Source: an uncultured bacterium (lineage in GTDB: Bacteria; Omnitrophota; Omnitrophia; Omnitrophales; CAZLUT01). From it: a DNA stretch of 64,000 bases. The notes below the pieces were generated by a model. It was not told the origin of the DNA. It searched no databases and saw only the letters and a list, made by a program, of their open reading frames with translations. The DNA is taken from positions 1,172 through 65,171 of the forward strand of contig CAZLUT010000002.1 of the NCBI GenBank assembly GCA_964562805.1, written 5' to 3'. This document shows, one piece after another, positions 10,090 to 52,072 of this stretch; positions within the stretch are counted from its first letter, which is position 1; each line of letters opens with the position of its first letter. Made by a program: the position numbers and the translations under genes.

Positions 10090-11619
10090 ATGTTTAAGGT
10101 TGCATCACATAAAAATACTGCTCAATTATCCGGGCTAATCATCGTTGGACTTTTCGAAGGGGAGAGTATCCTTCAGTCGCCTGATCGAGCTTTAAAAAAC
10201 CTTTCAGGGTTTCTTTCACAAGTTGTTCGCGAAGAAAAATTTCGGGGTGAATTTAAAAAGACCCTCTTTTTTTACCACAAATTAGGCCAGAAAGTCATTC
10301 AAGTTTTAGTGATGGGCCTTGGGCCTCAATCTCGATTTAAAAAAGAGAATTTTCGCGAAGTGCTTGCGCTGGCTGCCCGGATCGTGAAAGAAAAAAGCGC
10401 AACAAATTTTCAGGTATTCTTAAAGTCTTTTCTCCCAAAAACTCTTTCTTACAGTGAGGCGGGAGAAGCGGCTGCAGAGGCTATTGATTTAGCTCTTTAT
10501 TCCTTTAAGGGTTACCAAAAAATAAAGGTAAAGGTTAAAAAGGGAAGCTCGAGTTTTTCCAACAAGGTAACATTTATTATTCCTGTGTCATCATATGCCA
10601 AAGAAGTGAAAGCGGGAATTGGCAGGGGATTAGCCCTTTCAAGCGGGGTTAAAATAGCCCGGGATCTCATTAATGAACCCGGTAATAAAATGAACCCTCA
10701 GATTTTTTCCACCCAAACAAAAAAGCTTGGGGAAGCCTCTGGTTTCAAAGTTAAGGTTCTTGAGAAGAGTGATCTTATCCGGGAAAAAATGGGCGCTCTC
10801 TTGGCTGTGGGACAAGGCAGCTCTATTCCACCGCGGCTTTTGGTCTTGACCTATGGAGGTCAGAAAAAAGGTGCTCCTATCTGTTTTGTGGGAAAAGGCG
10901 TTACTTTTGATGCTGGCGGCATCTCCCTTAAGCCTTCAAAAGGTATGGATAAGATGAAGTATGATATGGCTGGAGGTGCGGCGGTGGTCGGAATTATGGC
11001 CTCTGCAGCCAAATTAAAACTTCCTGAAAGGCTTATTGGGATCATTCCGTTGGTTGAGAATATGCCCGGAGGCAGCGCTGTGAAACCGGGGGATGTGGTA
11101 ACATCAGCTTCCGGATTAACTATTGAAGTAACCAATACTGATGCTGAAGGCAGAATGATCCTAGCTGATGCACTTCACTATGCTAAAAAGTTCAAGCCAA
11201 AGGCGGTTTATGACTTAGCCACTTTGACAGGAGCTGTGATTGTTGCTCTTGGTTCCAGGTGTATGGCGGCTCTTGGAGATTCCAAGCTTATTGAGACTCT
11301 GAAGGAGGCCGGGAGTACGGTTAATGAGAGGGTATGGGAACTCCCTATGTTTAAGGAGTACGGGGAAGACATTAGAAGCGAGGTGGCTGACCTTCAAAAC
11401 GTTGGACAGGGCGAAGCTGGGACCATTATTGGGGCTAAATTTCTAGAAAAATTTGTTAATAAGGCTTATCCTTGGGTTCATTTGGATATAGCAGGAATGG
11501 CCTGGGCTGAAAAGAGCGTTCCCAGTTATTGTTCAAAAAAAGGCGCCAGGGGAATCGGTGTTAGGCTTTTGATAGAAGTATTGAGGAGACAAAATGGCAA
11601 AAAAGAAAAAAGCAACTAA
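10090..11619 (+). CDS. pepA: Leucyl aminopeptidase (M17 family)
   Basis: M17 signature [25 protein letters not shown], and a GGAGG ribosome-binding site upstream. Confidence 0.85.
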
Positions 11620-12181
11620 ATTAACTCAAAAAAAATCAATCGCCCCTCATATTAAAAGCGTTTTGGAGCTGATAGGTGAGGATCCAAAACGGCATGGCCT
11701 CGAGAAAACTCCTATGCGTGTTGAGGAGTCATTTAAATTTTTGACAAGCGGTTACCGCCATAGCGTTAACGAAGTGCTGAATGACGCGATTTTTAACGAA
11801 AATTATGATGAGATGGTGGTTATTCGTGATATCGAAATTTTTAGTCTTTGCGAGCATCATCTTTTGCCCTTTTATGGAAAATGCCATGTTGCTTATATTC
11901 CGGATGGCAAGGTAGTGGGTTTAAGTAAAATTCCGCGCCTTGTAGATATGTTTGCAAGACGTCTTCAGGTCCAAGAGAGACTGACGACCCAGATTGCGGA
12001 TTGTCTTATGGAAAAACTAACTCCTAAGGGAGTTGCAGTCGTTATTGAAGCCTCTCATCTTTGTATGATTATGAGAGGAGTTGAAAAACAGAACTCCGTT
12101 TGTGTTACGAGCTCAATGCAAGGTGTCTTCAGGGAAGATGAAAGAACGAGACGCGAATTTTTGAGTTTGATACATAAATAG
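11594..12181 (+). CDS. folE: GTP cyclohydrolase I
   Basis: Motifs [28 protein letters not shown] and QVQERLT. Size 195 aa. Confidence 0.9.
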
Positions 12182-12210: not shown

Positions 12211-12594
12211 ATGGATAATCCAACTAATAAGCGATCAAACGTCCGAATGCTATTTCAAAATCAACTCGAATTTAAAATTTGTTCAATCAATCTCGTCTCA
12301 GAGCTTCATTTGGCAAGTTCGCGAAATATATCACAATCAGGGATGTGTTTTCGGGCCGCCTCGGCGCCCCCTTTGGGAAGTATTATTAAAATTCAGACGG
12401 ATCTTGAAACGCTAGCAAAATGTATTCAAATTGAAAACATGCTATTTGAACTAAAAGGGTGTGTTTTAGGAAAAGTTATTTGGGCTTCACCTGCCAAGGA
12501 AGACGCGTCTCTAACAGATGTGGGAGTAGTCTTTATTAAAACCGGCGAAATAGAAGTCCCCGATGTAAAGGAAGCAGTTTCTTTGGTTGCTTAA
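12211..12594 (+). CDS. Stand-alone PilZ-domain protein (putative c-di-GMP receptor)
   Basis: RxxxR motif KRSNVR and (D/N)xSxxG motif NISQSG with typical spacing. Size 127 aa. Confidence 0.55.
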   Translation: MDNPTNKRSNVRMLFQNQLEFKICSINLVSELHLASSRNISQSGMCFRAASAPPLGSIIKIQTDLETLAKCIQIENMLFELKGCVLGKVIWASPAKEDASLTDVGVVFIKTGEIEVPDVKEAVSLVA

Positions 12595-13125: not shown

Positions 13126-15570
13126 ATGGCCAATATGACAAGCAAAGCTTCCCGACAATCTTTAAAAGAAGTTTTTTGGATTTCCGTAGGCCTGGCTGCC
13201 TTGCTCCTATTTTGGTTTTGGGATTTATTTACCCTGAAATTTGGATTCATTTCAGGCGATCACAAGGTTCAGCATTATCCCTGGATGTCCTATTTATATT
13301 CAGAACTTCACCAGGGAAGATTTCCTCTCTGGACTGATTTAATCGGCTGCGGATTCCCAATATTTGCTGAAGGCCAGATCGCGGCACTCTATCCGATCAA
13401 CCTTATTATTTATGGATTACTGCCTATCTCGTTTGAGGCTGCCTACAACTATTCCACAATACTTCACTATTGGATAGGTGGGATATTTTTCTACATATTT
13501 TGCCGACATATCTTAATTTCCCGTTTTGGCAGCTTTATTGCAACCACAATTTATCTTTTTGGTTCCACTCAGGGCGGGTATTTTTATAACATGAATTCCC
13601 AGAAGACCTGCATTTGGTTTCCTCTTGTTTTATTTCTAATGGAACGGGCTCTAAAGACTCGGAATCTAATTTATCTCTTATGGATAGGCGTTATTTTTGG
13701 CATTCAGATAAATGCCGGCTATCTACAAATCGCTTTTTACTGTTTAGTTTTTTCCTTCCTCTATTATTTTTTTAGATTGGTATTTTTTGAAAAAGACGAA
13801 GGGAGCTGGGGAAAGCGATTTTTTATTTTTATAAAACATTCACTTCTTATGGGTGTTATTGGTATTTTGATTGGACTGCCTCAAATATTGGCTACAGGGG
13901 AATTGAGCCAATTTTCAAGCCGGGTGAATTTACCGGAGAGTTTTGCGTATGTCGGGTCCCTGCCCCCGCAAGGCATCTTAACGCTTCTATTTCCATTTTT
14001 GGATCCTTATCTGGGACAAGAAATGTACGTGGGTATTTTCGGTATTTTACTTCTATCTGCGGCGTGGTTTTGGCGCAAAGAGTGGTCCAAACAGCTGTGG
14101 GCTATGTTCTGGTTGGGTCTTTTTGCTTTTCTAATCGCCTTAGGTCAATTCAGCCCTCTTTACGTAGGTATAATCAAGCTAACGCATTTTTACGGGTTCA
14201 GAGTTCCGGCCAAAGTTGTCTATTTTTTAGTTTTTGCATTTGCTGTTTTTTCTGGGTGGGGACTAAGTAAACTGCTTACTTCGCAATCCGAAAAAGAAAC
14301 CAAAAGGGCGATTGTATTTTTTGCCGCGCTGATGCTTATCGGTATGACGGCAGGATTATTTGCCGAAATGATGATTCGTTTTTTTATGCCGGTTATGAAG
14401 CAGACAGGCAGCTGGATTTTAGAGAAATATTATGTGGGCAGTCCCTTACATCCGCATTCTCTCGATCTCTATCTTGATAAATTGGACAGCTATTTAGCCG
14501 GTCTAACTCAAATGGTTTCGGTTCGGGAAAGTTTTTGGATGAAAGTTTGGATCTTTTTGCTGGCCGGCAATTTAGCTATTGGGATACTTTTATTGACAGT
14601 TCCGGCAAGAGTTAAAAAATTTATTCTTATCTTTGGCGTATTGGTGTTGGCTTTGGATCTGTATGGTTATACTTTTGTAAACAATATCAAGCCTGGGTGG
14701 GAAGCGTACGACAGTTATTTGAGCCCGGGTAAGCCATTTTTAAATTATTTAGATCAAGACAGGTCTCAATATAGGGTTTACGAATATTACACTGATTTGT
14801 CACAGGATGATTCTTTTCCGCTAATGTATAACTCAAATATGGACCATGGAATCAGCGACATCGGCGTATACGCGCCTTTTGCTTTATTGGAGCACAGAAA
14901 TTTTTATTTAGGGCTTGGTGCCAGCAACAATTCGCTTGATGTCAGCCTTGCGGCGCCAGAACAGTTCTCATCACTTAAGCCGCTTTTGGATGTTTCAAAT
15001 GTAAAATACCTGATAGGTCAGGAAATACCGAGCAATGCTACCGGTTGGAAAAAGGTGTTGGATTCAGCCGGGTATAGTCTCTATCAAAACAAGGAAGTCC
15101 TTCCTCGTACTTTTTGGCTGCCATTAGGCAATACGGTGGTGGTCCAAGATTTCGACCGGTTTGTCCGCGAAAGCTCCTTTAACCCCTCGCGGGAAATTAT
15201 TTTTGAAAGAGAAGAACTGAAAGGGTTTAATTTTGCGAAAAAAGAGAATAGAGGCAAATCTTATCAAGCGGTGATTCTTAATGAGATAGACTCTCATCAA
15301 ATTCAAATAAAAACTCATTTTCAAGAAAGCGGGTGGCTATTTTTAAGTGATATTTTTTATCCAGGCTGGGAAGCCACTATTGACGGAAAAAAAACCCGAA
15401 TTTTTAAAGCGAATGGTATTTTTAGAACAGTTTTGGTTCCAATGGGGGCGCATACAATGGAATTTGTATATAAACCGTTTTACAAAAAATGGCTAAACCT
15501 TCCTTTTGTTTGTGCAGGGCTTATCTTTTTAATCTCAATAGTTATTGGGCTGAAGCGGATAAAGCGATGA
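13126..15570 (+). CDS. YfhO-family polytopic membrane protein (GT-C-like glycosyltransferase, as for teichoic-acid glycosylation)
   Basis: 814 aa, many TM helices. YfhO-type N-terminal motif GDHKVQHYPWMSYLYSELHQGRFPLWTDLIGCGFPIFAEGQIAALYP. Confidence 0.65.
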   Translation: MANMTSKASRQSLKEVFWISVGLAALLLFWFWDLFTLKFGFISGDHKVQHYPWMSYLYSELHQGRFPLWTDLIGCGFPIFAEGQIAALYPINLIIYGLLPISFEAAYNYSTILHYWIGGIFFYIFCRHILISRFGSFIATTIYLFGSTQGGYFYNMNSQKTCIWFPLVLFLMERALKTRNLIYLLWIGVIFGIQINAGYLQIAFYCLVFSFLYYFFRLVFFEKDEGSWGKRFFIFIKHSLLMGVIGILIGLPQILATGELSQFSSRVNLPESFAYVGSLPPQGILTLLFPFLDPYLGQEMYVGIFGILLLSAAWFWRKEWSKQLWAMFWLGLFAFLIALGQFSPLYVGIIKLTHFYGFRVPAKVVYFLVFAFAVFSGWGLSKLLTSQSEKETKRAIVFFAALMLIGMTAGLFAEMMIRFFMPVMKQTGSWILEKYYVGSPLHPHSLDLYLDKLDSYLAGLTQMVSVRESFWMKVWIFLLAGNLAIGILLLTVPARVKKFILIFGVLVLALDLYGYTFVNNIKPGWEAYDSYLSPGKPFLNYLDQDRSQYRVYEYYTDLSQDDSFPLMYNSNMDHGISDIGVYAPFALLEHRNFYLGLGASNNSLDVSLAAPEQFSSLKPLLDVSNVKYLIGQEIPSNATGWKKVLDSAGYSLYQNKEVLPRTFWLPLGNTVVVQDFDRFVRESSFNPSREIIFEREELKGFNFAKKENRGKSYQAVILNEIDSHQIQIKTHFQESGWLFLSDIFYPGWEATIDGKKTRIFKANGIFRTVLVPMGAHTMEFVYKPFYKKWLNLPFVCAGLIFLISIVIGLKRIKR

Positions 15571-16481
15571 TACCCGAACTTTTAAAGCCCCATTTCAAAC
15601 AAATAAAAATGTGTCCATTGTGCGCTTCCCAAGAATTTAAAAAGACGTTTGAAGTGAAAGGTTTAAAAATTTCTAAGTGCAGTCAGTGTGGTTTTCGCTT
15701 CATGAATCCTTGTTTGAATGACGAAGGGATGGGTCTTTTGTATAAAAATTCAAAGATTCTAATAGAGACAAATCCGGCGCTTGAATCTTATTACGAATAT
15801 GGGGTCGGGAATATGAAAAGTAAAACGTATCAAGATTATGTTAAAGTTTTATCGCTCCTTGAGAGAGTTTATCCGGTCAGCGAAAAACCGAAGCTTTTTG
15901 AAATTGGATATGGATCAGGAGCCTTTTTAAAAGAAGCGCGTGAGAGGGGATGGCAGGTGGACGGCACGGATACAAGCGAGGATAATTTTCGACTGCTAAC
16001 GAATGAAGGTGTAACAGTTCAATTGGGATCATTTGACGATTTTGAGGTTTCGAGCAACAAATACCAGGCAGTCGCCCTCTGGGATGTTATCGAACATACA
16101 ATTAGTCCAAAAGATTTTATCCGAAAAGCTTACGAAATGCTTGTCCCGGGCGGATTGCTTGTGATCGTAACTCCTAATGTTTCAGGACTTTTAAATAAAG
16201 TTTCAGAATTTTTGTATTTTGTATCTTTCAGAAAAATTAAATTTGGAATTAATCAACTATATTGCTTAGAGCATGTTGGCTATTTTAACCAAAAAAACCT
16301 AAAAAAATTGGTAGAAGATGAAGGTTTTTTATTTGAGAAAGCGCTTTTGACTGAAACAGACCTCGAACGGTATCATTTTTCACCAATTGTAAAATTTTGT
16401 CTTAAAATATTTTTTATTGCTGCCCGAATTGTTAGCATGGCTAACCGTATTGTTGTGGTTGCCAAAAAATCTGAAAAATAG
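15567..16481 (+). CDS. Class I SAM-dependent methyltransferase with an N-terminal Cys4 zinc ribbon
   Basis: CPLCAS...CSQCGF ribbon. MTase motif I LFEIGYGSGAFL and motif LWDVIEH. Start chosen at the ATGA overlap with the upstream gene; the track's longer start at 15489 overlaps it by 82 nt. Confidence 0.7.
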   Translation: MIPELLKPHFKQIKMCPLCASQEFKKTFEVKGLKISKCSQCGFRFMNPCLNDEGMGLLYKNSKILIETNPALESYYEYGVGNMKSKTYQDYVKVLSLLERVYPVSEKPKLFEIGYGSGAFLKEARERGWQVDGTDTSEDNFRLLTNEGVTVQLGSFDDFEVSSNKYQAVALWDVIEHTISPKDFIRKAYEMLVPGGLLVIVTPNVSGLLNKVSEFLYFVSFRKIKFGINQLYCLEHVGYFNQKNLKKLVEDEGFLFEKALLTETDLERYHFSPIVKFCLKIFFIAARIVSMANRIVVVAKKSEK

Positions 16482-16544
16482 TCCACAATCGTTTGGTGAT
16501 AGCTATAAATTTAAGTGTCTATAAGGTTTGGATTTGTTTATAAT

Positions 16545-16573
16545 GCCGCTTGCAAAAGCGGCATTTTGATTTT
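16545..16573 (+). terminator. Rho-independent terminator-like hairpin GCCGCTT-GCAA-AAGCGGC followed by ATTTTGATTTT
   Basis: 7-bp GC-rich stem, tetraloop and T-rich tail, located 60 bp downstream of the methyltransferase stop. Confidence 0.5.
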
Positions 16574-16629
16574 AGGCTGCGTTATTTTAAGCATTATTAA
16601 GCTGGAAGTAGTAATCAAGAAAGGTGATC

Positions 16630-17604
16630 ATGAAAAAAAGAGCCCTTATTACAGGTATTACTGGTCAAGACGGTTCATATTTAGCTGAACTTTTGCTCGA
16701 AAAAGGATATGAGGTTCATGGAATTATTAGAAGAGTTGCGCTCGAAGATCCTCAGCACAGATTGTGGCGGCTTCAGCACATATTAAATAAGATTTCTTTG
16801 CATTCAGGCACATTGGAAAATTACGCCGCTTTATTTAAAGTCGTGCAAGCAGTTAAGCCGGACGAAGTGTATCATTTAGGAGCTCAAAGTTATGTTGGGT
16901 ATTCTTTTGATGATGAGTTTTCAACGATCAGCACCAATATCAACGGCACTCATTACATATTATCAGCCGTAAAAGAAATGGCGCCAAAATGTAAATTGTA
17001 TTTTGCAGCCTCCAGCGAAATTTTTGGAAAAGTAAAACAAACTCCGCAAACTGAAGAAACCCCGTTTCACCCGAGGTCTCCTTACGGTATTTCTAAATCG
17101 GCTGGCTTTGAATTAACGCGAAATTATCGTGAGGCTTATGGAGTGTTCGCTTGTAGCGGAATCTTGTTTAACCACGAATCTCCCCGGAGAGGGTTTGAAT
17201 TTGTGACTCGAAAAATTTCAACCGGTGTTGCTGAAATCAAATTGGGATTACGAAAAAAAATTAAATTAGGTAACTTGGAAGCATCGAGAGATTGGGGGCA
17301 TGCAAAAGAGTATGTGAAAGCCATGTGGCAAATGTTGCAACAGAAAGAACCGGACGATTATGTTATTGCGACAGGGGAAACGCATACAGTTAAGCAGTTT
17401 TTGGAGTGTGCGTTTGAACATGTGGGTTTAAATTCTAAGGACCATGTTGAGATTGATCCTGAGTTGATACGGCCAGCCGAAGTTAATCTGCTGTTAGGAG
17501 ACGCTTCGAAAGCTAAGAAGAAGTTGGGGTGGAAGTACGAATGTACTTTTGAAGATTTGGTGAAAGAAATGGTGGATGCTGATATAGCTAGACTGAAAGC
17601 ATAG
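16630..17604 (+). CDS. gmd: GDP-mannose 4,6-dehydratase
   Basis: RALITGITGQDGSYLAELLLEKGYEVHGI N-terminus. Catalytic motifs YxxxK (YGISKSAG) and LFNHESPRRG. ATG at 16630 preferred over GTG at 16624. Confidence 0.85.
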   Translation: MKKRALITGITGQDGSYLAELLLEKGYEVHGIIRRVALEDPQHRLWRLQHILNKISLHSGTLENYAALFKVVQAVKPDEVYHLGAQSYVGYSFDDEFSTISTNINGTHYILSAVKEMAPKCKLYFAASSEIFGKVKQTPQTEETPFHPRSPYGISKSAGFELTRNYREAYGVFACSGILFNHESPRRGFEFVTRKISTGVAEIKLGLRKKIKLGNLEASRDWGHAKEYVKAMWQMLQQKEPDDYVIATGETHTVKQFLECAFEHVGLNSKDHVEIDPELIRPAEVNLLLGDASKAKKKLGWKYECTFEDLVKEMVDADIARLKA

Positions 17605-17619
17605 TATTTTCTTAAATCC

Positions 17620-18378
17620 ATGAAAACGATTCTTATTATTCCGACTTATAATGAACGGAAAAATATTGAAGAACTGCTGAAAACTATCTGGGAGCATACA
17701 AAAGAATGTCCCGTGGAGGTTTTGGTGATTGATAGTGCCTCGCCAGATGGAACCGGTAAATTTTTAGATGAACTTAAAAGTAAAGATAAGAGAGTTCACG
17801 TTCTCCATCAAAGGAAGAAGCTTGGATTAGGACGGGCTTATATTGACGGTTTTCAGTGGGCTATTGGCCGGCGTAACGAATATCAGTATGTTTTTACGAT
17901 GGATGCGGACTTTTCGCATCATCCTCAGTATTTGAAATCTATGATCGAAGCTCTTAAGCAGTACGATTTGGTTATTGGATCCCGTTATGTAAAAGGCGGA
18001 GGTCTTTTGAATTGGCCTATAGTAAGGCGTTTTTTGAGTGCTTTTGCAAATTTTTATGCAAAAACAATCATTCAGCTGCCACTAAATGATGTAACCGCTG
18101 GATTTCATGGTTTTAGAATAGAGTTGCTTTCAAAAGTAATGAATTACGGTATTCAGGCGGATGGATATGCTTTTTTAATGGAACTAAAATTATTTTCTAT
18201 TTTTGAAGGAGCCCGTATCCATGAGCATCCCATTATTTTTAATGATCGTACTGAGGGCGATTCTAAGATTTCCAAACGGGTCATCTTCGAATCTATCTGT
18301 CTTACTTGGTGGCTCGGCCTTAAGCATTTAAACCGGCGTCTATTTCACAAAAAAAGCAAACCAATTAACCGTTCATAA
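17620..18378 (+). CDS. GT2 glycosyltransferase, polyprenol-phosphate sugar synthase-like (DPM1/ArnC-like)
   Basis: ILIIPTYNERKNIEEL, VLVIDSASPDGT and the DAD motif FTMDADFSHHP. Soluble, 252 aa. Confidence 0.75.
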   Translation: MKTILIIPTYNERKNIEELLKTIWEHTKECPVEVLVIDSASPDGTGKFLDELKSKDKRVHVLHQRKKLGLGRAYIDGFQWAIGRRNEYQYVFTMDADFSHHPQYLKSMIEALKQYDLVIGSRYVKGGGLLNWPIVRRFLSAFANFYAKTIIQLPLNDVTAGFHGFRIELLSKVMNYGIQADGYAFLMELKLFSIFEGARIHEHPIIFNDRTEGDSKISKRVIFESICLTWWLGLKHLNRRLFHKKSKPINRS

Positions 18379-19973
18379 TGCATCATTCTGCCATCAGCAA
18401 AACACTTTTGCTTTTGCTATTGGTTCTTATCTTGGCGTTGGGAGTCCAGCTGAGCCAAATCGACCGCCCGCTCACGGGGAATTTTGCTAGCTACCAGACA
18501 GTGTTGGCATCAATTGCGGACAACCTGGTTCGTGAGAACTTTTCGGGATTTTTATTACCTAAAACAAATTTAATTATATTGGGCGGTGAAAGATCATTAC
18601 ATTTAAATCAATATCCATTTCCGTCAGTATTGGCTGCTGCGGGGATGAGGGTTTTTGGTGGAAGTGTAGAAGTGTGGGGTCGCCTTCAGGCGGTACTGTT
18701 CAACTTATTAACCGCGCTACTTATTAGCTTTATTGGACGCCGGTTATTTTCTAAACGAACAGGCCTTGTGGCGGCGATTATTTATTTACTTTCACCCTTT
18801 GCTTTGATTTACGGGCAAAGTTTTATGTCGGAGGCAACCTCTCTTTTCTTTCTGGTTTTTGCTTTTTTTCTATTAATTCCCAGCAAGAATAGCAATTCAA
18901 GTATATTTCGAGCTATTCTATCGGCAATCTTTTTCTCTCTAACTGTTTGCGGCCGTCTCCACTTCATAGTATTTTTGCCGGCCTATCTTTTTTCCTTTTT
19001 TCTATTTGGTGACGAAAAGAAATATTCAAAAGCAATCTTGTATTTAATTTTTTCTTTGGCGGCACCCATCGCTTGGTATTCGCATACTTATTTTGCTGGT
19101 TCGACCGCAATTAATTTGCATACAAGCTTATTTCTTCAGTTGGGCGCATCAGGCGCAAGTAAAATTTCGCTATTGTTGAATCCTAGTTATTATAAGCAAA
19201 TTTTTGATACAGTTTCCGGGACGATGCTAACGCCGTTACTTTTCCCTTTCTTTTTCCTCGGGTTATTCTCTTTTAGGGACGAGAAAAAGCAGATCGGTTT
19301 GATCTTAGCAGTCTTATTTTTTGGATCTTCCATTTTTGTTTTAACTCCTCAGAAGGTAATGGATCATGATTTTTATCTATATGGCCTTTTCCCCTTTATT
19401 GCTCTGTTGGCGGCGCGTGGATTTTCACTTCTTATCGATTTATTTCCCGCTTTTAGAAAAGGAATAGTTATTTTACTCACCGTATTTTTATATTTTGTAA
19501 TTTCAGGACGGTATTTTTTTAATCCCATATTTAAATCAAGCTCTGGTGAAAAGCAGGAAGTTCAAATTGGAAAGTGGATTGAAAACAGCACGCGCTCGGG
19601 AGATAAAGTAGTTATGATTGGGAAAAATGCGCCAATTTTATTTTATTATGCTAAAAGACCTGCGTGGAATGTTTCTTTGGGTGAATCTCAAAGATTACCG
19701 GTTTATTTTGCGGGTAGGCCAGAACAGATTTTTGAAGCAGAAGAATTGAACCAGCTTAACGAGGCGATGCAAGATGATGTGAAATGGCTAGAGTACCTAA
19801 GGGGGCTGGGTGCGACTCATGTTGTTTTGGCGGAAAAAGGCTATTTAGAAAGATTTCCAACATTTAAAAATTACCTTTTAAAAAATCATAGGCAAATACA
19901 ATCAGAACATGCCGGTTTTTATTTTTTTGAGATTCAGAAAAACGAGATTTCTAGAAAAAAAGGTGAGACATAA
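18378..19973 (+). CDS. GT-C family membrane glycosyltransferase (ArnT/PMT-like), putative polyprenol-P-sugar-dependent transferase
   Basis: Roughly 11 TM helices with a C-terminal soluble domain. TAATG stop-start overlap with the upstream GT2. Confidence 0.55.
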   Translation: MHHSAISKTLLLLLLVLILALGVQLSQIDRPLTGNFASYQTVLASIADNLVRENFSGFLLPKTNLIILGGERSLHLNQYPFPSVLAAAGMRVFGGSVEVWGRLQAVLFNLLTALLISFIGRRLFSKRTGLVAAIIYLLSPFALIYGQSFMSEATSLFFLVFAFFLLIPSKNSNSSIFRAILSAIFFSLTVCGRLHFIVFLPAYLFSFFLFGDEKKYSKAILYLIFSLAAPIAWYSHTYFAGSTAINLHTSLFLQLGASGASKISLLLNPSYYKQIFDTVSGTMLTPLLFPFFFLGLFSFRDEKKQIGLILAVLFFGSSIFVLTPQKVMDHDFYLYGLFPFIALLAARGFSLLIDLFPAFRKGIVILLTVFLYFVISGRYFFNPIFKSSSGEKQEVQIGKWIENSTRSGDKVVMIGKNAPILFYYAKRPAWNVSLGESQRLPVYFAGRPEQIFEAEELNQLNEAMQDDVKWLEYLRGLGATHVVLAEKGYLERFPTFKNYLLKNHRQIQSEHAGFYFFEIQKNEISRKKGET

Positions 19974-19975
19974 AA

Positions 19976-21133
19976 GTGAAAAATAATAAGCGTATTCCTT
20001 ATTCTTGCCAATGGATTGATGAAAAAGATATTGAAGCGGTTGTGTCAGTTTTAAAATCAGATTTTATCACTCAAGGACCGAAAGTTGCTGAATTCGAGGA
20101 GAAGTTCGCTAAAAAGGTGGGTTCAAAATATGCCGTGGCTGTTGCGAATGGAACCGCGGGGCTTCATTTGGCGGCTTTGGCGCTTGATTTAAAAGAAGGT
20201 GATGAGGTAATCACGTCTCCTATTTCTTTTTTAGCGACGTCAAACGCGGCTTTTTATGTAGGCGCAAAACCTATTTTTGCAGACATTGATCCAAAGACCC
20301 TTTGCTTAGATGTAAAGCAAGTTAAAAAAAAGATCACTCCAAAAACAAAAGCAATTTTTCCAGTCCATTTTGCGGGCCAACCAGCCGCTTTGGAGGAGTT
20401 GTCTCAATTGTGCAAAAAACACGGTTTGTATATGGTTGAAGATGCCTGCCATGCTTTGGGAGCTCAGTATAAGCAGTCTATGGTTGGAGATTGTCAGTAT
20501 TCAAATATGGCCGTTTTTAGTTTTCATCCCGTTAAACATTTAGCAACAGGCGAGGGGGGAATGGTTACTACCAATAGCGAGAACTTGTATCAAAAGCTTT
20601 GTGATCTGCGGAGCCATGGAATGGTTCGAGATCGTGGAAGATTTGAATTAAATGATGAAGGGCCTTGGTGCTATGAAATGCAGTCTTTGGGGTTTAATTA
20701 TCGAATGACTGATATGCAGGCAGCTTTAGGTGTTTCTCAACTCGAGAAGATTGATATGTTTGTAAGTAAAAGGCGCGAGATTGCAAACCGGTATATCGAG
20801 GCATTTAAAGAATTAAAATTAGTCCGAGTTCCGGAATATATCAATGATACAGTTAATTCCCATCATTTATTTATAATTCAGCTCAATTTAAGAAATCTTA
20901 ATAAAACTCGAGCCGAAATTTTCGAAGCCTTAAAAAGCGAAGGTTTGGGGCTTCAAATTCATTATATTCCAATTCCAAGGCAGCCCTTTTATAAGAAAAA
21001 AGGGTACAACTACAAAGATTATCCGGTTGCTGAATCTTTTTATAAATCAACCATTTCAATACCGCTTTTTCCAAAGATGACCGAAGAAGAAGTGGATTAT
21101 GTTATTTCGATTGTTAAAAAGATTTTAAGCTAA
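19976..21133 (+). CDS. DegT/DnrJ/EryC1/StrS-family PLP sugar aminotransferase; with gmd possibly a GDP-perosamine synthase
   Basis: DFITQGPKVAEFEEKFAKKVGSKYAVAVANGTAGLHLA, FSFHPVKHLATGEGG carrying the PLP lysine, and NYRMTDMQAALG. GTG start. Confidence 0.8.
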   Translation: MKNNKRIPYSCQWIDEKDIEAVVSVLKSDFITQGPKVAEFEEKFAKKVGSKYAVAVANGTAGLHLAALALDLKEGDEVITSPISFLATSNAAFYVGAKPIFADIDPKTLCLDVKQVKKKITPKTKAIFPVHFAGQPAALEELSQLCKKHGLYMVEDACHALGAQYKQSMVGDCQYSNMAVFSFHPVKHLATGEGGMVTTNSENLYQKLCDLRSHGMVRDRGRFELNDEGPWCYEMQSLGFNYRMTDMQAALGVSQLEKIDMFVSKRREIANRYIEAFKELKLVRVPEYINDTVNSHHLFIIQLNLRNLNKTRAEIFEALKSEGLGLQIHYIPIPRQPFYKKKGYNYKDYPVAESFYKSTISIPLFPKMTEEEVDYVISIVKKILS

Positions 21134-21159: not shown

Positions 21160-21231
21160 ATATTATTGACTATTTTTGATTATTGTTGACATTATTTTAT
21201 TAAACACTTAAAATTTCCTGAATTTTAAGTG
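21160..21231 (+). promoter_or_regulatory. Sigma-70-like promoter with repeated TATTWTTGAY boxes and a perfect 11-bp inverted repeat overlapping the -10
   Basis: ATTATTGAC, CTATTTTTGAT and TTGTTGACA boxes. -35 TTGACA at 21185-21190, 17-bp spacer, -10 TAAAAT at 21208-21213. Palindrome CACTTAAAATT-TCCTG-AATTTTAAGTG at 21205-21231. Confidence 0.45.
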
Positions 21232-21350
21232 TTCAGCTGAGACTTTGGTTGTAGAAGAGATTTAAAATTACGATAAAGAATTTTGTTTTATACTATAATC
21301 AAAAGAGTTTTATTTGAGACAAGACTAATATAAAGTTGGGAGAATTTAAG

Positions 21351-22376
21351 ATGGCTGAGTCGAAGATTAATCAGGAAGAAACATCAGGCGGGCGAGTACT
21401 CAACTCGTCAATTCAAGCAGATCCTGATGTCCCTTTCCGGAAAAAATTTGGCCCCAAGTGGGATGAGTATCGACGTAATTGGGCAGCAGCCTCTCGAATG
21501 GAATACCGTCCTGATTTTCCTCTCTTTGTTCGCTTCGAGACTAAATTTCGCTGCAATCTTCACTGTAAAATGTGTGCGCATGGCCACCCGGATCTTGAGA
21601 AGGGGTATTCGTATGACGGTGAGCTTGATTTTGATACTTATTGCCGCTTGATTGATGAGTGTGCTGAGCATGGTTGTCCTTCAATTGGAATGAATCATGC
21701 CAACGAACCGCTTCTAGACAAAGATTTAATCGAGAGAATTAATTATGCGACTAAGCGTGGAATTATGGATATCCATATGAATACCAATGCAATGTTATTA
21801 ACTGCTGAAATGTCAAAAAAGCTTCTTGATACGGGGTTAACCAGACTTTGTTTTAGTGTGGATGCGCTAACTCCCGAGACTTTTAAAAAGATCCGGGTAG
21901 ATGCTGATTATGATCTCGTTATGTCGAATATTGACACTTTTTTAAATTTACGGGCCGAGCGAAGGCAGGATCTTCCGGTGACTCGGGTTAGCCTTGTTTT
22001 ACAGGAAGATAACAAGCACGAAGTAGATGCTTTTCGCGAGCATTGGGTCAAAAAAGTTGAGTATGTAGCGATTCAAAGGTATGTTCCCATAAGCCCATTT
22101 GATCAAGAAGAGGACGATATGCGCGCTCATGCAACGTCTTTTTCACCTAAAGAAGGCGCTCAAAAGTGTTCCTATGCCTGGGAATCTGTGTTTATCCATG
22201 GCGATGGAACTGTTTTGCCGTGTGCGGCACACAGAGCTCGAAAGATTGCCGTGGGCAATATACACAAAAACACAATTCATGAAATTTGGAATTCGCCCTC
22301 GATGGAAGAGTTGCGGATGAAGCATAAAACGGGGAATTTAGAAGGCTTAAAGCTTTGCCCGACATGCATTCAATAA
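21351..22376 (+). CDS. Radical SAM enzyme with a C-terminal SPASM/twitch-like Cys cluster
   Basis: CNLHCKMC (Cx3Cx2C). C-terminal cysteines CSYAWE...GTVLPCAAH...LKLCPTC. ATG at 21351 has a GGGAGA ribosome-binding site; the track starts at a TTG at 21336. Confidence 0.7.
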   Translation: MAESKINQEETSGGRVLNSSIQADPDVPFRKKFGPKWDEYRRNWAAASRMEYRPDFPLFVRFETKFRCNLHCKMCAHGHPDLEKGYSYDGELDFDTYCRLIDECAEHGCPSIGMNHANEPLLDKDLIERINYATKRGIMDIHMNTNAMLLTAEMSKKLLDTGLTRLCFSVDALTPETFKKIRVDADYDLVMSNIDTFLNLRAERRQDLPVTRVSLVLQEDNKHEVDAFREHWVKKVEYVAIQRYVPISPFDQEEDDMRAHATSFSPKEGAQKCSYAWESVFIHGDGTVLPCAAHRARKIAVGNIHKNTIHEIWNSPSMEELRMKHKTGNLEGLKLCPTCIQ

Positions 22377-22399
22377 ATTAACAATAGGATTTAAGTACG

Positions 22400-23716
22400 A
22401 TGTCAAAAAAGAAAAAACTTGTTTATGTTCCGATGGCGGTTGATTTTATTCATCCAGGACATTTGAATATTATTAAGGAGGCAGCCGAACTCGGCGAAGT
22501 AGTAGTAGGTCTTTTTACAGACAAAGCGATTGCTTCTTATAAGAGACTGCCTTTTATGAGTTATGACCAGCGAAAAGAAGTTATTGAAAATGTGAAAGGT
22601 GTTGATCGAGTTGTGACGCAAGAAACACCTGATTATGAAGTGAATCTCAGGAAATATAAACCAGACTACATGGTGCATGGTACGGATTGGAAAAAAGGCC
22701 CTCTCAAAGAAGTTCGAGCTAAAGCGATTGATATTTTGGCTGAATGGGGTGGCGAGATGGTTGAGCCTGAGTACACGAAGGGTATCTCTTCCACAGAAGT
22801 GCATGTGCATCTTCGAACGATTGGTACTACACCGCAATTGCGTTTAGCCAAACTTCGCCGTCTTTTGGAAGTAAAAAACATGGTCCGCGTTATGGAGGCT
22901 CATAATGGTTTGAGTGCTTTAATTGCGGAAAAAGCAGAGATTAAAGATCCCGGCAAGCCAATTGCCGCATTTGATGCAATTTGGTTAAGCAGCTTAACAG
23001 AGTCAACCGCCAAAGGTAGGCCGGATATTGAATTGGTCGACCTTTCTTCCCGATCGAAAACTATTAACGATATTTTTGAAGTCACCGTAAAACCGATGAT
23101 CTTTGACGGTGATACGGGAGGTATTCCGGAGCATTTTATTTATACGGTTCGCACGCTTGAACGTCTAGGGGTTTCGGCTGTGGTGATTGAAGATAAGACA
23201 GGCCTGAAAATGAATTCGCTTTTTGGTACTGATGTGAAACAGACTCAGGATTCTATTGAAGCTTTTTGTAATAAGATTTCGCTCGGAAAGAAAGCCCAAA
23301 TCACACCGGATTTTATGATTATTGCTCGAATCGAAAGCTTGATTCTTCAAAAAGGTATGGAAGACGCCCTCAAGCGAGCAGTAGCTTATATTGAGGCGGG
23401 CGCGGATGGTATTATGATTCATAGCCGATCAAAAACACCTGATGAAGTTTTGGCTTTTTGCGCTGAATACAAAAAATTCAAAAAGAAGGTACCGTTAGTA
23501 GTTATTCCGACAACATATGCCCAAGTTTCTGAAAAAGAATTAATTGACGCTGGAGTTAATGTGGTGATTTATGCCAACCATCTTCTTCGCGCAGCATACC
23601 CGGCAATGGTTAAAACGGCAGAATCTATTTTGCATCATGGCCGTTCAATGGAGGCGTCGAACGATTTTTGTATGCCAGTATCTGAGATGCTGGAGATTCT
23701 AGCTAATAAATACTAA
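22400..23716 (+). CDS. pepM: Fusion of a cytidylyltransferase (TagD-like HxGH) and phosphoenolpyruvate mutase
   Basis: N-terminal FIHPGHLNII...GISSTEVH, a TagD-like CTP-transferase pattern. The C-terminal domain has the isocitrate-lyase/PEP-mutase fold with the PEP-mutase-specific motif EDKTGLKMNS (EDKxxxxxNS). Confidence 0.8.
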   Translation: MSKKKKLVYVPMAVDFIHPGHLNIIKEAAELGEVVVGLFTDKAIASYKRLPFMSYDQRKEVIENVKGVDRVVTQETPDYEVNLRKYKPDYMVHGTDWKKGPLKEVRAKAIDILAEWGGEMVEPEYTKGISSTEVHVHLRTIGTTPQLRLAKLRRLLEVKNMVRVMEAHNGLSALIAEKAEIKDPGKPIAAFDAIWLSSLTESTAKGRPDIELVDLSSRSKTINDIFEVTVKPMIFDGDTGGIPEHFIYTVRTLERLGVSAVVIEDKTGLKMNSLFGTDVKQTQDSIEAFCNKISLGKKAQITPDFMIIARIESLILQKGMEDALKRAVAYIEAGADGIMIHSRSKTPDEVLAFCAEYKKFKKKVPLVVIPTTYAQVSEKELIDAGVNVVIYANHLLRAAYPAMVKTAESILHHGRSMEASNDFCMPVSEMLEILANKY

Positions 23717-23741
23717 CGCACCACCTTGTTAGGAAGTTTTT

Positions 23742-24881
23742 GTGTTAAATTGTGCTGATTTTTTTAGGGTCTTAACTCAAAAAGGCGTTCAATTTTATTG
23801 CGGTGTTCCTGATTCTTTGCTCAAATCCTTTTGTGCTTATTTATCTGACGCACTCCCTGAAGATAAAAATATAATTGCCGTTAATGAAGGAGCTGCGGTT
23901 GCGTTGGCTTCCGGAGTTTATATGGCGACAGGACAACCAGCCGTTGTTTATATGCAGAATTCGGGAGAAGGGAATGCAGCGAATCCTCTTCTCTCGCTTG
24001 CCGATTCCAAAGTATACAGTATCCCTATGTTGCTATTAGTGGGATGGCGTGGAGAGCCTGGAGTGAAGGATGAGCCACAGCATATTAAGCAGGGAGAGGT
24101 TACTTTAGCGCTTTTAGATGCGATGGGTATTCGGTATGAGATACTTCCATCTGATGTAAAATTGGCCGAAGCGGCTATCCAGAGAGCTTTTGAATATATG
24201 AATTTGAAGAAAGCTCCTTATGCCCTAATTATTCGTAAGGACACTTTTGAGCCTTACGCTTCTACTGCGACACGCGCCGAAAATAACTACTCACTTAGCC
24301 GTGAAGATGCGATACAAGAAATTATTCAATTTACAAAAAACATGCAAAATCAGCCCGCTTTTGTATCCACTACCGGAATGACTTCTCGAGAACTTTTTGA
24401 AAACCGAGCCAAGAATAGAGAATCGTTAAGCTCTGATTTTCTTACGGTAGGCTCAATGGGTCACGCATCTTCGATTGCCTTAGGACTTGCATTAAATTTA
24501 CCCAATCGGGATGTTTTTTGTGTTGATGGAGATGGTGCTATGCTGATGCATATGGGGAGCTTAGCGACCATTGGCAGCTCCGGTGTTAAGAATTTTAAAC
24601 ATATCCTGATTAATAACGGAGCACATGACTCCGTAGGCGGTCAGCCTACTTGCGGGTTTAAAGTCAATTTCCGAGAGATTGCCAAGGCTTGTGGTTACAC
24701 CAATACTTGGTTAGCAACGAATAAGGATGAATTAAAAGAATGTTTGAAGCAAATGGTTACAAAAGAAGATTTAGAGCTTTTGGAAATTCGAGTAAAAAAA
24801 GGAGCTAGGAAAGATTTGGGTCGCCCCACTTCCTCGCCAGGAGAGAATAAAATTCAATTTATGGAATATTTAAAAGGTTAA
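23742..24881 (+). CDS. ppd: Phosphonopyruvate decarboxylase (TPP-dependent)
   Basis: N-terminal GVQFYCGVPDSLLKSF. TPP-binding motif GDGAMLMHMGSLATIG...NNGAHDSVGGQ. Size roughly 379 aa, immediately downstream of pepM. GTG start. Confidence 0.8.
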   Translation: MLNCADFFRVLTQKGVQFYCGVPDSLLKSFCAYLSDALPEDKNIIAVNEGAAVALASGVYMATGQPAVVYMQNSGEGNAANPLLSLADSKVYSIPMLLLVGWRGEPGVKDEPQHIKQGEVTLALLDAMGIRYEILPSDVKLAEAAIQRAFEYMNLKKAPYALIIRKDTFEPYASTATRAENNYSLSREDAIQEIIQFTKNMQNQPAFVSTTGMTSRELFENRAKNRESLSSDFLTVGSMGHASSIALGLALNLPNRDVFCVDGDGAMLMHMGSLATIGSSGVKNFKHILINNGAHDSVGGQPTCGFKVNFREIAKACGYTNTWLATNKDELKECLKQMVTKEDLELLEIRVKKGARKDLGRPTSSPGENKIQFMEYLKG

Positions 24882-24886
24882 GATCG

Positions 24887-25603
24887 ATGATAAATGTAAT
24901 TGCTATAGATGGTCCTTCATATGTTGGTAAAAGCACAGTAGCTCGTTCGTTGGCTGCCTTATTGGGTTATGACTTTATTAATACTGGCCATATGTTTCGC
25001 GTGGTCGCACGAGAATGTCTTTTAAGAAATCTTTCTGTAAAGAAGGAAGGTGAGGTTGCAGATCTGGCGCATTGTCTTGATATTCAGTTTGAAAGTAATG
25101 AAAAAGGCAACTCGAGAACTCTGGTTAACGGTGAAGATTTAACCGAAGCTTTAGAGGGGCATGAGATTATGCTTTTAGCTGCCAAAGTGGCTCAGATTGG
25201 AAAGTTGCGGGATATTTTAACTGAGAAGCAGCGCTTGTATGCCGACAAAAAGATGATTGTCATGGAGGGCCGAGACATTGGCTCAATTGTTTTTCCTGAT
25301 GCAAAGTGGAAATTTTTTATTACAGCTTCGATGGAAATTCGTGCTAAGCGAATGTATAAAATTATGAATGAAGCTGAGAAGAAGAATTGCTCTGATTACC
25401 ATACGTTGATTCCAAAGCTAGAAGAGATTGATGAGGCCGACCGCAATCGCAAGATTTCGCCGCTTAGAATCGCCGATGATGCAATTATTTATGATAATTC
25501 TGACAGTCCTAGTGAACATGAAGATTCGTTGATTTTAAAATACTACATTACACACACGGACGAGATTGTTAAAAATACAGAAATTCTGAAGTTTAAAAAA
25601 TAA
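24887..25603 (+). CDS. cmk: Cytidylate kinase
   Basis: IAIDGPSYVGKSTVARSLA P-loop, GRDIGSIVFPDAKWKFFITAS and RDRNRKISPLRIADDA align closely with canonical Cmk. Confidence 0.75.
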   Translation: MINVIAIDGPSYVGKSTVARSLAALLGYDFINTGHMFRVVARECLLRNLSVKKEGEVADLAHCLDIQFESNEKGNSRTLVNGEDLTEALEGHEIMLLAAKVAQIGKLRDILTEKQRLYADKKMIVMEGRDIGSIVFPDAKWKFFITASMEIRAKRMYKIMNEAEKKNCSDYHTLIPKLEEIDEADRNRKISPLRIADDAIIYDNSDSPSEHEDSLILKYYITHTDEIVKNTEILKFKK

Positions 25604-25613
25604 GGAAAGATTC

Positions 25614-26480
25614 ATGGAAACTATTAAAGAGCTTAAAGTGATCTGTCAAACAACAGCGCAAAAAGACATTTCAAATGTTTATATGCGCTATATTTGCCGT
25701 CCGATTTCAATTCGTATCACACGCTTTCTTATTCCAACAGCAGTCACTCCGGACCAAGTTAGCTTTGCGATGATTGTTACGGGTGTTATTGCGAGCCTTA
25801 TATTTTTAATAGCGCATCCTATAAGTTTTTTCCTGGCAGCGCTCCTTCTTCAGTTTTGGTATATTTTAGATTGTGTCGATGGAGAATTGGCTCGTTATCG
25901 CTCCTATTCCAAAAATAAAGAAGTGATCCAGGATAAGGCTACTTTGCCGATAACGGGTGCTTATTGGGATTATCTCAATCATTACATTGTTCACGGGCTT
26001 GTACCGCTTACGATTTCTTACGGATTGTTTCTTAAGACACAAAATTCGTTTTGGATTTTACTCGGATTTGTCACCTCGACTTTCCAAGTGATGTTGCTTG
26101 CTATTCACGATACGCAATGCCGCGCCTATCTAACTAAAATCCGGAAAACACTTCCGACTCATGTATTGAATGTTAAATCGGCGTCGGAAGTGGATGAGGC
26201 TGCGCCAGAAAAAAAGAAAATGAAAGGAATAATGTTTTTGAAGCTGCCATTTGTGACCGTCCATTATCTTTCGACTTATCCTTCGGTGATGAATGTGATA
26301 ACTGTGCTTGCTCTTACGTCGTGCTTAACAGGATTTGGGAGTGATTTTAGAGGTTTCTTTCTTTGGTTTTATGCGTTGGGATCAGGTGTTGTTTTTTTAG
26401 GTTTAGCTTATAAGCTGCTCCATGACCGTGGTCTCGATAAGGAATTTGATAAAGAATTTTATTTAGAAAAACGCACCTAA
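25614..26480 (+). CDS. CDP-alcohol phosphatidyltransferase-family membrane protein
   Basis: Polytopic membrane protein with the DxxDGxxAR start of the CDP-OH phosphotransferase motif (LDCVDGELARYRS). Confidence 0.55.
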   Translation: METIKELKVICQTTAQKDISNVYMRYICRPISIRITRFLIPTAVTPDQVSFAMIVTGVIASLIFLIAHPISFFLAALLLQFWYILDCVDGELARYRSYSKNKEVIQDKATLPITGAYWDYLNHYIVHGLVPLTISYGLFLKTQNSFWILLGFVTSTFQVMLLAIHDTQCRAYLTKIRKTLPTHVLNVKSASEVDEAAPEKKKMKGIMFLKLPFVTVHYLSTYPSVMNVITVLALTSCLTGFGSDFRGFFLWFYALGSGVVFLGLAYKLLHDRGLDKEFDKEFYLEKRT

Positions 26481-27574: not shown

Positions 27575-28305
27575 AGATTGTTGCTACTATCGAAGCGAGG
27601 ATGGGTTCCAGCCGGCTTCCTGGAAAGATTCTTAAAAATATTTTGGATAAGCCGACTCTAGAGCTGCTCGTTGAGCGGGTTAGAAAATCAAAGCACATTG
27701 AGCAGGTGGTTGTAGCCACTACGGTTGATCCGAGTGACAACATCACCGAAGAAAATTGCCGCAAGATCGGTATTGATTGTTTCCGAGGAAGCTCCGAAGA
27801 TGTTTTGAATAGAGTGCTTCAAACAGCCAAAGCATATCAGGCTGATTTAATCGTAGAATTAACAGGCGACTGCCCGCTTTTAGATCCAGAAATTATTGAT
27901 AGTGTTATCGAAAAGTATCTTAGCGGTTCATTTGATTATGTAAGCAATGTTTTGGAAAGAACTTATCCGAGAGGCTTGGATACCCAGGTTTTTTCAACGG
28001 CTGTTTTAGAGAAAGTGTCTCAAATCACTCAGGATCCGGCTGACAGAGAAAACGTTTCGCTTTATATCTATGAAAACCCCGAGCAATTTAAGCTAGGGAA
28101 CGTTAAAGCTTCCTCGGAGCATAACAGGCCGGATTTAAGATTAACCGTTGATACGGTTGAGGATTTTAAATTAATTAGTTCGATCTATAATGAGTTGTAT
28201 CCAAAAAACAAAGACTTTAATTTGTCGGATGTGATTAAGCTTTTAAATCAAAAGCCTGAACTCAGCAAGCTTAACGCGGATGTTCAGCAGAAGAAAGCAA
28301 GATGA
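27571..28305 (+). CDS. pseF: CMP-nonulosonic acid synthetase (acylneuraminate cytidylyltransferase family; PseF/SpsF-like)
   Basis: KIVATIEARMGSSRLPGKILKNI and VVVATT. Size 244 aa. GTG start after a GAGGGGGA ribosome-binding site. Confidence 0.7.
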   Translation: MKIVATIEARMGSSRLPGKILKNILDKPTLELLVERVRKSKHIEQVVVATTVDPSDNITEENCRKIGIDCFRGSSEDVLNRVLQTAKAYQADLIVELTGDCPLLDPEIIDSVIEKYLSGSFDYVSNVLERTYPRGLDTQVFSTAVLEKVSQITQDPADRENVSLYIYENPEQFKLGNVKASSEHNRPDLRLTVDTVEDFKLISSIYNELYPKNKDFNLSDVIKLLNQKPELSKLNADVQQKKAR

Positions 28306-29348: not shown

Positions 29349-29351
29349 AAG

Positions 29352-33558: not shown

Positions 33559-33566
33559 ATAATGCC

Positions 33567-52053: not shown

Positions 52054-52072
52054 TCCAGTTATTATACCCGCT

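Follow-up and report, generated by a model that had tools for sequence, protein, structure and literature searches.

A predicted polyprenol-phosphate-sugar glycosylation pair and a PseC-type aminotransferase gene in a surface-glycan island of an Omnitrophota bacterium

The closest described systems to the locus studied here are the three-component periplasmic glycosylation systems GtrB/GtrA/Gtr* and CsbB/GtcA/YfhO, which have been reviewed (PMC11127046), the ArnB-ArnC-ArnT system for the addition of 4-amino-4-deoxy-L-arabinose (Ara4N) to lipid A, and the Ppm1/DPM1 synthases together with their polyprenol-phosphate-mannose (PPM)-dependent GT-C enzymes. Here we analyze four adjoining genes, encoding a GDP-mannose 4,6-dehydratase (gmd), a family 2 glycosyltransferase (GT2), a GT-C membrane glycosyltransferase and a DegT-family aminotransferase, in a 64-kb stretch of DNA (the window) from an uncultured Omnitrophota bacterium (contig CAZLUT010000002.1). 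A preliminary description had taken gmd and DegT as the minimal route to GDP-perosamine, and the two glycosyltransferases as an Arn-like module delivering a 4-amino-6-deoxyhexose via a polyprenol carrier. We propose instead, with moderate confidence, that the region comprises two functional units in one probable transcription unit, namely a GT2/GT-C glycosylation pair and the aminotransferase PseC, with gmd as an accessory, within a surface-glycan island.

The GT2/GT-C pair

The four open reading frames (ORFs) and the TAATG coupling were confirmed on the + strand as the preliminary description had given them, and by sequence comparison the family matches of all four lie far above chance level. 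The unit and its candidate boundaries are as follows.

16542 to 16565, + strand: terminator-like hairpin with a 10-bp stem and a T run, after the upstream methyltransferase gene; candidate 5' boundary of the four-gene unit
16630 to 17604, + strand: gmd, predicted GDP-mannose 4,6-dehydratase (Pfam, TIGR01472 and PDB GDP-mannose dehydratases, GMDs); the mechanical ORF runs from GTG 16624
17620 to 18378, + strand: soluble GT2 of 252 aa, predicted polyprenol/dolichol-phosphate mannose synthase type (DPM1/Ppm1-like)
18378 to 19973, + strand: GT-C membrane glycosyltransferase of 531 aa, translationally coupled to GT2 through the TAATG overlap
19976 to 21133, + strand: DegT of 385 aa, predicted PseC, UDP-4-amino-4,6-dideoxy-N-acetyl-beta-L-altrosamine transaminase (TIGR03588 and orthologue context)
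21186 to 21214, + strand: sigma-70-like promoter match (11/12) in the 202-bp gap after PseC; candidate 3' boundary of the unit

The GT2 stop and the GT-C start overlap at 18376-18380, and the gaps between gmd and GT2 and between GT-C and DegT are 15 bp and 2 bp, respectively. In a 14-kb scan, the hairpin just 5' of gmd was the best terminator-like candidate and the site after PseC the best promoter-like match; neither goes beyond a match to the consensus, and shuffled sequence gave at least as many such sites in total as the scan. Tight junctions, a hairpin before gmd and a gap with a promoter-like match after DegT make the four genes look like one transcription unit, which they therefore probably form.

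GT2 belongs to PF00535 (Glycos_transf_2, 2.3e-33), and a search for a hydrophobic or transmembrane (TM) segment in it found none. Its best solved relative is the dolichol-phosphate mannose synthase (DPMS) of Pyrococcus furiosus (PfDPMS, 5mlz), matched at 1.2e-32 over the catalytic domain (residues 1-226). ArnC reached 2.5e-5 in the PDB search, GtrB likewise about 1e-5, and the ArnC model NF007986 gave 27.8 bits against a cutoff of 529. With the roles of the PfDPMS residues taken from PMC5526996, alignment to 5mlz revealed that GT2 keeps E12, the DAD motif (D95, D97) and H100, the acceptor-phosphate residues R122 (Pf R117), R136 (R131) and S140 (S135), and the A-loop residues R210 (Pf R202) and K216 (K208). 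Pf Arg117, the counterpart of R122, contacts O6 of the mannose. Among the substitutions, Pf Gln93 is replaced by Ser and Lys178 by Ala; the position of Pf Asp39 is Ser in most orthologues (DSASPD), and L012 and L018, two of the related loci described below, have DDNSPD. The same motifs recur in 16 orthologues, whose loci include some with gmd and others lacking it. In Omnitrophota, Elusimicrobia, Melioribacteraceae and Gemmatimonadales, homologues with 45-59% identity carry the annotation polyprenol monophosphomannose synthase. GT2 has the motifs in the forms DADxSHHP and GYxFxME, like eukaryotic type-I DPM1. GT2 is predicted to be of the polyprenol-phosphate mannose synthase (DPMS/PPM-synthase) type, and mannose from GDP-mannose is its most likely sugar.

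GT-C is a multi-pass membrane protein with a PMT_2 match (1.5e-11), about 12-13 TM helices and a C-terminal periplasmic alpha/beta domain. It has no NCBIfam match, and as the family profile retrieved nothing informative from the PDB sequences (best E 0.65), the protein was modeled. The resulting high-confidence model (pLDDT 89.3, pTM 0.90) matches the folds of ArnT, ALG12, AglB and Pmt4, with Pmt1/2 giving a partial Foldseek match (TM 0.33), and structural alignment with ArnT yields 12-13% identity. The model thus predicts a GT-C enzyme with an ArnT-like overall architecture, and by its sequence the protein is not a member of the ArnT family. The closest relative in the protein database is 56% identical, the family counts 339 clusters at E below 1e-30, and nearly all named matches are metagenome-assembled genomes of Candidatus Omnitrophota.

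The pair might also be a bacterial protein O-mannosylation system like the actinobacterial Ppm1/Pmt, in which GT-C would attach mannose to Ser/Thr residues of proteins that are secreted or located in the envelope, and not to a glycan or lipid. However, the PMT model PF02366 gave 21.3 bits, below its cutoff of 22.7, and the Pfam scan found no MIR domain, PMT_2 being the only match of this kind. ArnT and ALG12 are better structural matches for GT-C, and the genes around the pair serve polysaccharide, nonulosonic acid and phosphonate synthesis or encode other GT-Cs. We regard protein O-mannosylation as unlikely.

The predicted PPM-synthase/GT-C pair was followed through 34 distinct related loci, almost all of which come from metagenome genomes of Omnitrophota type, and to which the window proteins were mapped by BLASTP; the denominators used (30, 34 and 24) are the loci with enough flank for each feature. 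A GT2 orthologue (46-79% identity) lies near GT-C in 22 of 30 loci, usually overlapping it or within a few bases, and many loci have the pair but no aminotransferase in its vicinity. GT2 and GT-C together form the conserved core of the locus. The Arn-like logic proposed at first therefore stands in its GT2-to-GT-C pairing; it does not extend to the other parts, as the aminotransferase is not ArnB, GT2 is not ArnC, and ArnA and ArnD are missing. Two recurrent upstream contexts were found in the relatives. One consists of a YfhO-like or PMT_2 GT-C, one or more methyltransferases, GT2 and GT-C; the other of phosphoenolpyruvate (PEP) mutase, phosphonopyruvate decarboxylase (Ppd), cmk, a CDP-alcohol-transferase-like protein, GT2 and GT-C. 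The window combines both, with these two members of the first context upstream of gmd.

13126 to 15570, + strand: YfhO-like GT-C membrane protein (PF09586, 4.1e-22), recurring upstream of the GT2/GT-C block in relatives
15489 to 16481, + strand: S-adenosylmethionine (SAM)-dependent methyltransferase with an N-terminal Cys-rich ribbon (Methyltransf_23, 1.9e-19), also recurring in the block of relatives

The closest relative locus, L021, has the order YfhO, gmd, GT2, methyltransferase, GT-C, radical SAM and PEP mutase, with no aminotransferase between GT-C and the radical SAM gene. Its identity to the window is 93% for PEP mutase, 91% for the radical SAM protein, 88% for gmd and 79% for GT2. Identity between L021 (1-4898) and window positions 13126-19973 is much lower for GT-C (56%), the YfhO-like protein (44%) and the methyltransferase (40%), and the gene of the last has also changed its place. 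This pattern looks like cassette replacement or diversifying selection of the genes that set the specificity of surface decoration.

The aminotransferase and the pseudaminic acid genes

DegT belongs to PF01041 (DegT_DnrJ_EryC1, 9.9e-126). It scores 516.5 bits on the PseC model TIGR03588, passing the cutoff of 423.5 by 93 bits, and is the sole gene of the window above it; on the ArnB model NF008658 it scores 309.7 bits against a cutoff of 631. The context of its homologues was also compared. In Mahella australiensis, the homologue (52% identical) lies in a flagellin/Maf operon, after a PseB-type and a second short-chain dehydrogenase/reductase (SDR) gene, with NeuB, CTP_transf_3 and Glyco_tran_28_C genes further downstream. 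Another homologue (54% identical), named 'perosamine synthetase' by JGI, has genes for a PseB-type dehydratase, a cytidylyltransferase, a GNAT protein and NeuB on its flanks. Over these genomes and the related loci, the homologues found in pse operons are 49-55% identical to DegT. Among the related loci, PseC orthologues (46-55% identity) are contiguous with PseB in L004, L012 and L014, and with PseG, CMP-sugar cytidylyltransferase, GFO, second DegT and NeuB genes in L028, L034 and L043; the L012 and L028 orthologues were re-scored and both lie above the PseC cutoff. The matching genes of the window are listed below.

26534 to 31651, + strand: PseG, CMP-sugar cytidylyltransferase, GFO/IDH oxidoreductase, second DegT and NeuB-type synthase, contiguous with PseC in relatives
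32097 to 34118, + strand: PseB (inverting UDP-GlcNAc 4,6-dehydratase), the predicted supplier of the PseC substrate, and two GNAT acetyltransferases

PseB passes TIGR03589 (528.1 bits, cutoff 407.75) and PseG passes TIGR03590 (178.7 bits, cutoff 153.55). The PseH match is weak (47 bits, cutoff 93.1), and the cytidylyltransferase matches at the CTP_transf_3 level only. The nonulosonic acid synthase (30518-31651) passes the NeuB model (412.3 bits, cutoff 399.65) and falls 2 bits short on PseI (338.4, cutoff 340.25). Despite this NeuB-scoring synthase, the PseB, PseC and PseG genes point to a pathway of the pseudaminic type. In the window, a phosphonate block (21336-26480) separates PseC from PseG.

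Just downstream of GT-C, a PseC orthologue is found in 9 of 24 loci, mostly without gmd; in one locus (L016/L044, 3252-5425) LegB-LegC, for legionaminic acid, stands in its place, and in two (L029, L038) a more distant DegT (36% identity) lies beside homologues of the CMP-sugar cytidylyltransferase, GFO and NeuB. A nonulosonic acid cluster of either type is the usual downstream neighbor of the GT-C family. Because DegT passes the TIGR03588 cutoff, PseB, PseG and NeuB are encoded in the window, the orthologues lie in pse contexts and L021 has the block without PseC, DegT is predicted to be PseC, a part of the neighboring pseudaminic acid pathway and not of the GT2/GT-C pair.

These results bear directly on the perosamine route, according to which gmd and DegT would make GDP-perosamine, GT2 would load it onto polyprenyl phosphate and GT-C would transfer it in the periplasm in the manner of Arn. 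The packing of the four genes as one unit, the genuine gmd, the detectable relationship of DegT to perosamine synthase (1e-57) and the flanking of the block by gmd and a PseC-type gene in L012 as well are in its favor. However, DegT lies 93 bits above the PseC equivalog cutoff, has its orthologues embedded in pse operons, and is the only PseC candidate for an otherwise largely complete pse set in the window. Co-occurrence of gmd with an aminotransferase also fails among the three related loci with gmd, as L021 keeps gmd, GT2 and GT-C without DegT, L036 has no downstream sequence, and PseC is found only in L012. In addition, GT2 orthologues are alike with and without gmd, and the window encodes no formyltransferase or deformylase. 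The perosamine idea thus appears to fail because DegT is predicted to be a UDP-sugar enzyme and GT2 to be of a DPM/PPM-synthase type that is kept with or without gmd or PseC, and we consider it very unlikely. The preliminary description had itself named a UDP-sugar aminotransferase and a DPM-type GT2 as grounds for giving up the delivery of a 4-amino-6-deoxyhexose by a polyprenol carrier, and this is largely what was found.

An Arn analogue working with a UDP-sugar can also be conceived, in which UDP-4-amino-4,6-dideoxyhexose, the product of PseB and PseC, is diverted by GT2 onto polyprenyl phosphate and delivered by GT-C. The position of a PseC or LegC gene just downstream of GT-C in 12 of 24 loci and the loss of the guanine-binding Asp39 from GT2 would suit such a route. 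The other GT2 residues and its overall similarity are nevertheless DPMS-like, with ArnC matched only at 2.5e-5, many loci carry the pair without a nearby aminotransferase, and PseC is contiguous with the remaining nonulosonic acid genes in related loci. This diversion is extremely unlikely.

The second DegT gene of the window (29352-30590) was tried as a PseC or Per candidate and rejected, as it passes none of the equivalog cutoffs and forms a pair with a GFO-type oxidoreductase within a conserved unit of CMP-sugar cytidylyltransferase, GFO, second DegT and NeuB. This unit is 56-73% identical in relatives. The GFO/IDH/MocA oxidoreductase, with a weak match to UDP-GlcNAc 3-dehydrogenase, and the second DegT occupy 28302-30590, and together they suggest that the nonulosonic acid, or its precursor, receives an additional amino modification. 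After the GNAT genes, a WbuX-type N-acetyl sugar amidotransferase (34179-35312; 350 bits, cutoff 203) suggests an acetamidino-modified sugar. A literature search combining Omnitrophota with pseudaminic acid found nothing.

Proposed scheme and the place of gmd

We propose the following scheme for the two units. On the cytoplasmic face, GT2 would load polyprenyl phosphate with a hexose, for which mannose from GDP-mannose is the most likely choice. The charged lipid would then be flipped across the membrane, and the ArnT-fold GT-C would move the sugar in the periplasm to an envelope acceptor, which we infer to be a glycan or glycolipid built by the surrounding genes. In the second unit, PseC would aminate the UDP-4-keto sugar made by PseB (gene at 32097), and PseG, NeuB and the cytidylyltransferase would then complete a CMP-pseudaminic-acid-type sugar.

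Several observations weigh against this scheme. No GtrA, SMR or MATE flippase is encoded between 13126 and 21335, the nearest MOP-type flippase being at 37253-38722. The guanine-contacting Pf Asp39 is Ser39 in GT2, so that its nucleotide preference is less certain. A PDB sequence search ranks DegT nearer to ArnB (247 bits) than to Helicobacter pylori PseC (199) or Caulobacter perosamine synthase (199). This ranking is ambiguous and was not used alone; curated hidden Markov model cutoffs and gene context decided the assignment, the context being taken as an independent test because of the ambiguity. The close packing of all four genes would fit a shared product too. Finally, gmd has no reductase partner in the window, and it directly adjoins GT2 in the window, L021 and L012, in two different orders, so that the two may be functionally linked.

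The gmd product matches GDP_Man_Dehyd (PF16363) at 1.2e-125 and the GMDs of the PDB at 1e-97 to 1e-105 (2z1m, 1.9e-105), and scores 409.3 bits on TIGR01472, slightly under the cutoff of 415. Translation more likely begins at ATG 16630, which is preceded by AGGTGA, than at GTG 16624. From these matches, the product is predicted to be a genuine GDP-mannose 4,6-dehydratase. A tblastn search of the window with gmd, PseB and the Rmd-like protein of L036 found no second gmd-, fcl- or rmd-like SDR, a Per-type partner is missing from the window, and domain and model scans of the window ORFs found no manC. A true gmd (at least 50% identity, TIGR01472 404-434 bits) occurs in 3 of 34 loci (L021, L012 and L036). 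In L036, gmd overlaps an SDR gene; among solved structures, the protein encoded by this gene is closest to the GDP-4-keto-6-deoxymannose reductases 2pk3 (2e-46) and 6x3b. The overlap of gmd with an Rmd-like gene suggests that the sugar made by gmd in such islands usually goes to D-rhamnose and not to perosamine. We regard gmd as an accessory of the block that is present in few genomes and most likely supplies a GDP-6-deoxyhexose, e.g. D-rhamnose, to the island.

A closer tie between gmd and the pair would exist if, in the gmd-bearing genomes, GT2 loaded a 6-deoxyhexose derived from GDP-mannose, which GT-C would transfer in place of mannose. D-rhamnose is a candidate for this sugar, and either a bifunctional GMD or an unlinked Rmd could make it. 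Consistent with this, gmd stands directly beside GT2 in all three loci with both genes, in two orders (the window and L021, and L012), a gmd-Rmd-like pair occurs in the same island of an Omnitrophota relative, and the DPMS family uses GDP-sugars. However, 31 of the 34 loci that share the GT-C family lack gmd, the GT2 sequences of gmd-bearing loci carry no distinct signature, and the window has no Rmd or Fcl. In addition, the gmd-rmd pair of L036 has no adjoining GT2 orthologue, and the Arg117 that contacts mannose O6 in PfDPMS is conserved as R122. We judge this substitution of the sugar improbable. There is a slimmer chance still that, in these gmd-bearing variants (the window, L021 and L012), GT2 charges polyprenyl phosphate with such a 6-deoxyhexose and the hypervariable ArnT-fold GT-C transfers it onto a nonulosonic acid/phosphonate glycoconjugate. 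Such a lipid-linked 6-deoxyhexose donor route, if true, would be the first described in bacteria, and it would come from a phylum without cultured glycobiology.

With mannose transfer by the pair and PseC in a separate pathway as the favored assignment, a plausible but wrong pathway inference is corrected, since gmd beside DegT would otherwise be annotated as a perosamine route. The analysis also defines a conserved pair of polyprenol-phosphate-sugar synthase and GT-C in Omnitrophota, an uncultured phylum, in the neighborhood of pseudaminic or legionaminic acid and phosphonate genes and several other GT-C enzymes. It provides a concrete set of genes with which the envelope decoration of these very small and possibly host-dependent bacteria can be studied by heterologous expression. 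The architecture itself is that of an ordinary surface-sugar locus, expected rather than surprising to a glycobiologist.

The glycan island and known systems

Besides the pair, the 64-kb island has genes for export proteins of the Wzy_C, Wza and Wzc types, for the pseudaminic acid pathway and for a CMP-phosphonate pathway. Three further GT-C-type proteins are present in the window, the YfhO-like protein at 13126-15570, a DUF2079 protein at 45082-47576 (- strand) and a second PMT_2 protein at 50209-52981, and the latter two each adjoin further small GT2 genes. This implies several parallel periplasmic glycosylations dependent on polyprenol-phosphate sugars. After the promoter-like match lies the phosphonate block.

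21336 to 26480, + strand: phosphonate block of radical SAM/SPASM protein, cytidylyltransferase-PEP mutase fusion, phosphonopyruvate decarboxylase, CMP kinase and CDP-alcohol-phosphatidyltransferase-like membrane protein

The block has no adjoining transaminase or iron-type alcohol dehydrogenase (Fe-ADH), whereas the related loci L012 and L023 do have an Fe-ADH. The cmk and CDP-alcohol-transferase genes lie directly upstream of GT2-GT-C in L010, L011, L012 and L014, and directly upstream of GT-C itself in L015. The radical SAM/SPASM protein after PseC was considered as an orthologue of the one after PseC in Mahella, but at 24% identity orthology is not claimed. On Omnitrophota and phosphonate, the literature offered general surveys only. 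Outside the sugar pathways, the genes for the 7-deazaguanine (queuosine) precursor are split between GTP cyclohydrolase I (11594-12181) and QueD/PTPS, QueC and a QueE-like radical SAM protein (61000-62747). A small PilZ-domain protein (12211-12594) and a HAMP-GGDEF protein (2401-3765, - strand) flank the glycan island, which hints at cyclic di-GMP control of polysaccharide production.

Compared with the PseB-PseC-PseH-PseG-PseI-PseF pathway, the window has PseB, PseC and PseG above the equivalog cutoffs and encodes a NeuB-family synthase and a CMP-transferase. It differs in that PseC is split off by the 5-kb phosphonate block and joined to the GT2/GT-C operon, the synthase favors the NeuB model over PseI, the PseH match is weak, and a GFO and DegT pair is added. 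With the Gmd-Rmd (GDP-D-rhamnose) and Gmd-Per (GDP-perosamine) routes it shares a predicted genuine GMD; unlike them, the window lacks an Rmd, Fcl or Per partner, and it is the related L036 that has gmd with an Rmd-like reductase.

Similar to ArnB-ArnC-ArnT, a GT2 polyprenyl-phosphate sugar synthase would act before an ArnT-fold GT-C with a C-terminal periplasmic domain, and an aminotransferase gene is in the same operon. However, the aminotransferase here scores as a PseC equivalog and not as ArnB, GT2 is soluble and of the DPMS type whereas ArnC is membrane-anchored, and identity of GT-C to ArnT is at the level given above. Domains of the ArnA formyltransferase/decarboxylase, the ArnD deformylase and the ArnE/F flippase were absent from all ORFs of at least 100 aa in the window. 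The likeness to Ppm1/DPM1 and the PPM-dependent GT-Cs (actinobacterial Pmt and PimE, eukaryotic ALG and PMT) lies in the alignment of GT2 over the whole PfDPMS catalytic domain and the match of the GT-C model to ALG12 and Pmt4, which depend on dolichol-phosphate mannose. Differences are the change of Asp39 to Ser, a GT2 without a TM domain or partner subunit, the lack of a MIR domain, and a GT-C that forms a separate, largely Omnitrophota subfamily. Unlike the three-component systems, the pair has no GtrA, SMR or MATE flippase beside it, and GT2 does not have the TM hairpins of GtrB. Like them, the locus has a polyprenyl-phosphate glycosyltransferase gene adjoining a GT-C gene in a polysaccharide locus, with a YfhO-like GT-C just upstream, and its GT-C is much more divergent than its neighbors, as the serotype-specific Gtr enzymes are. 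By analogy, the best-supported placement of the GT2/GT-C pair is within this class of extracytoplasmic three-component glycosylation systems.

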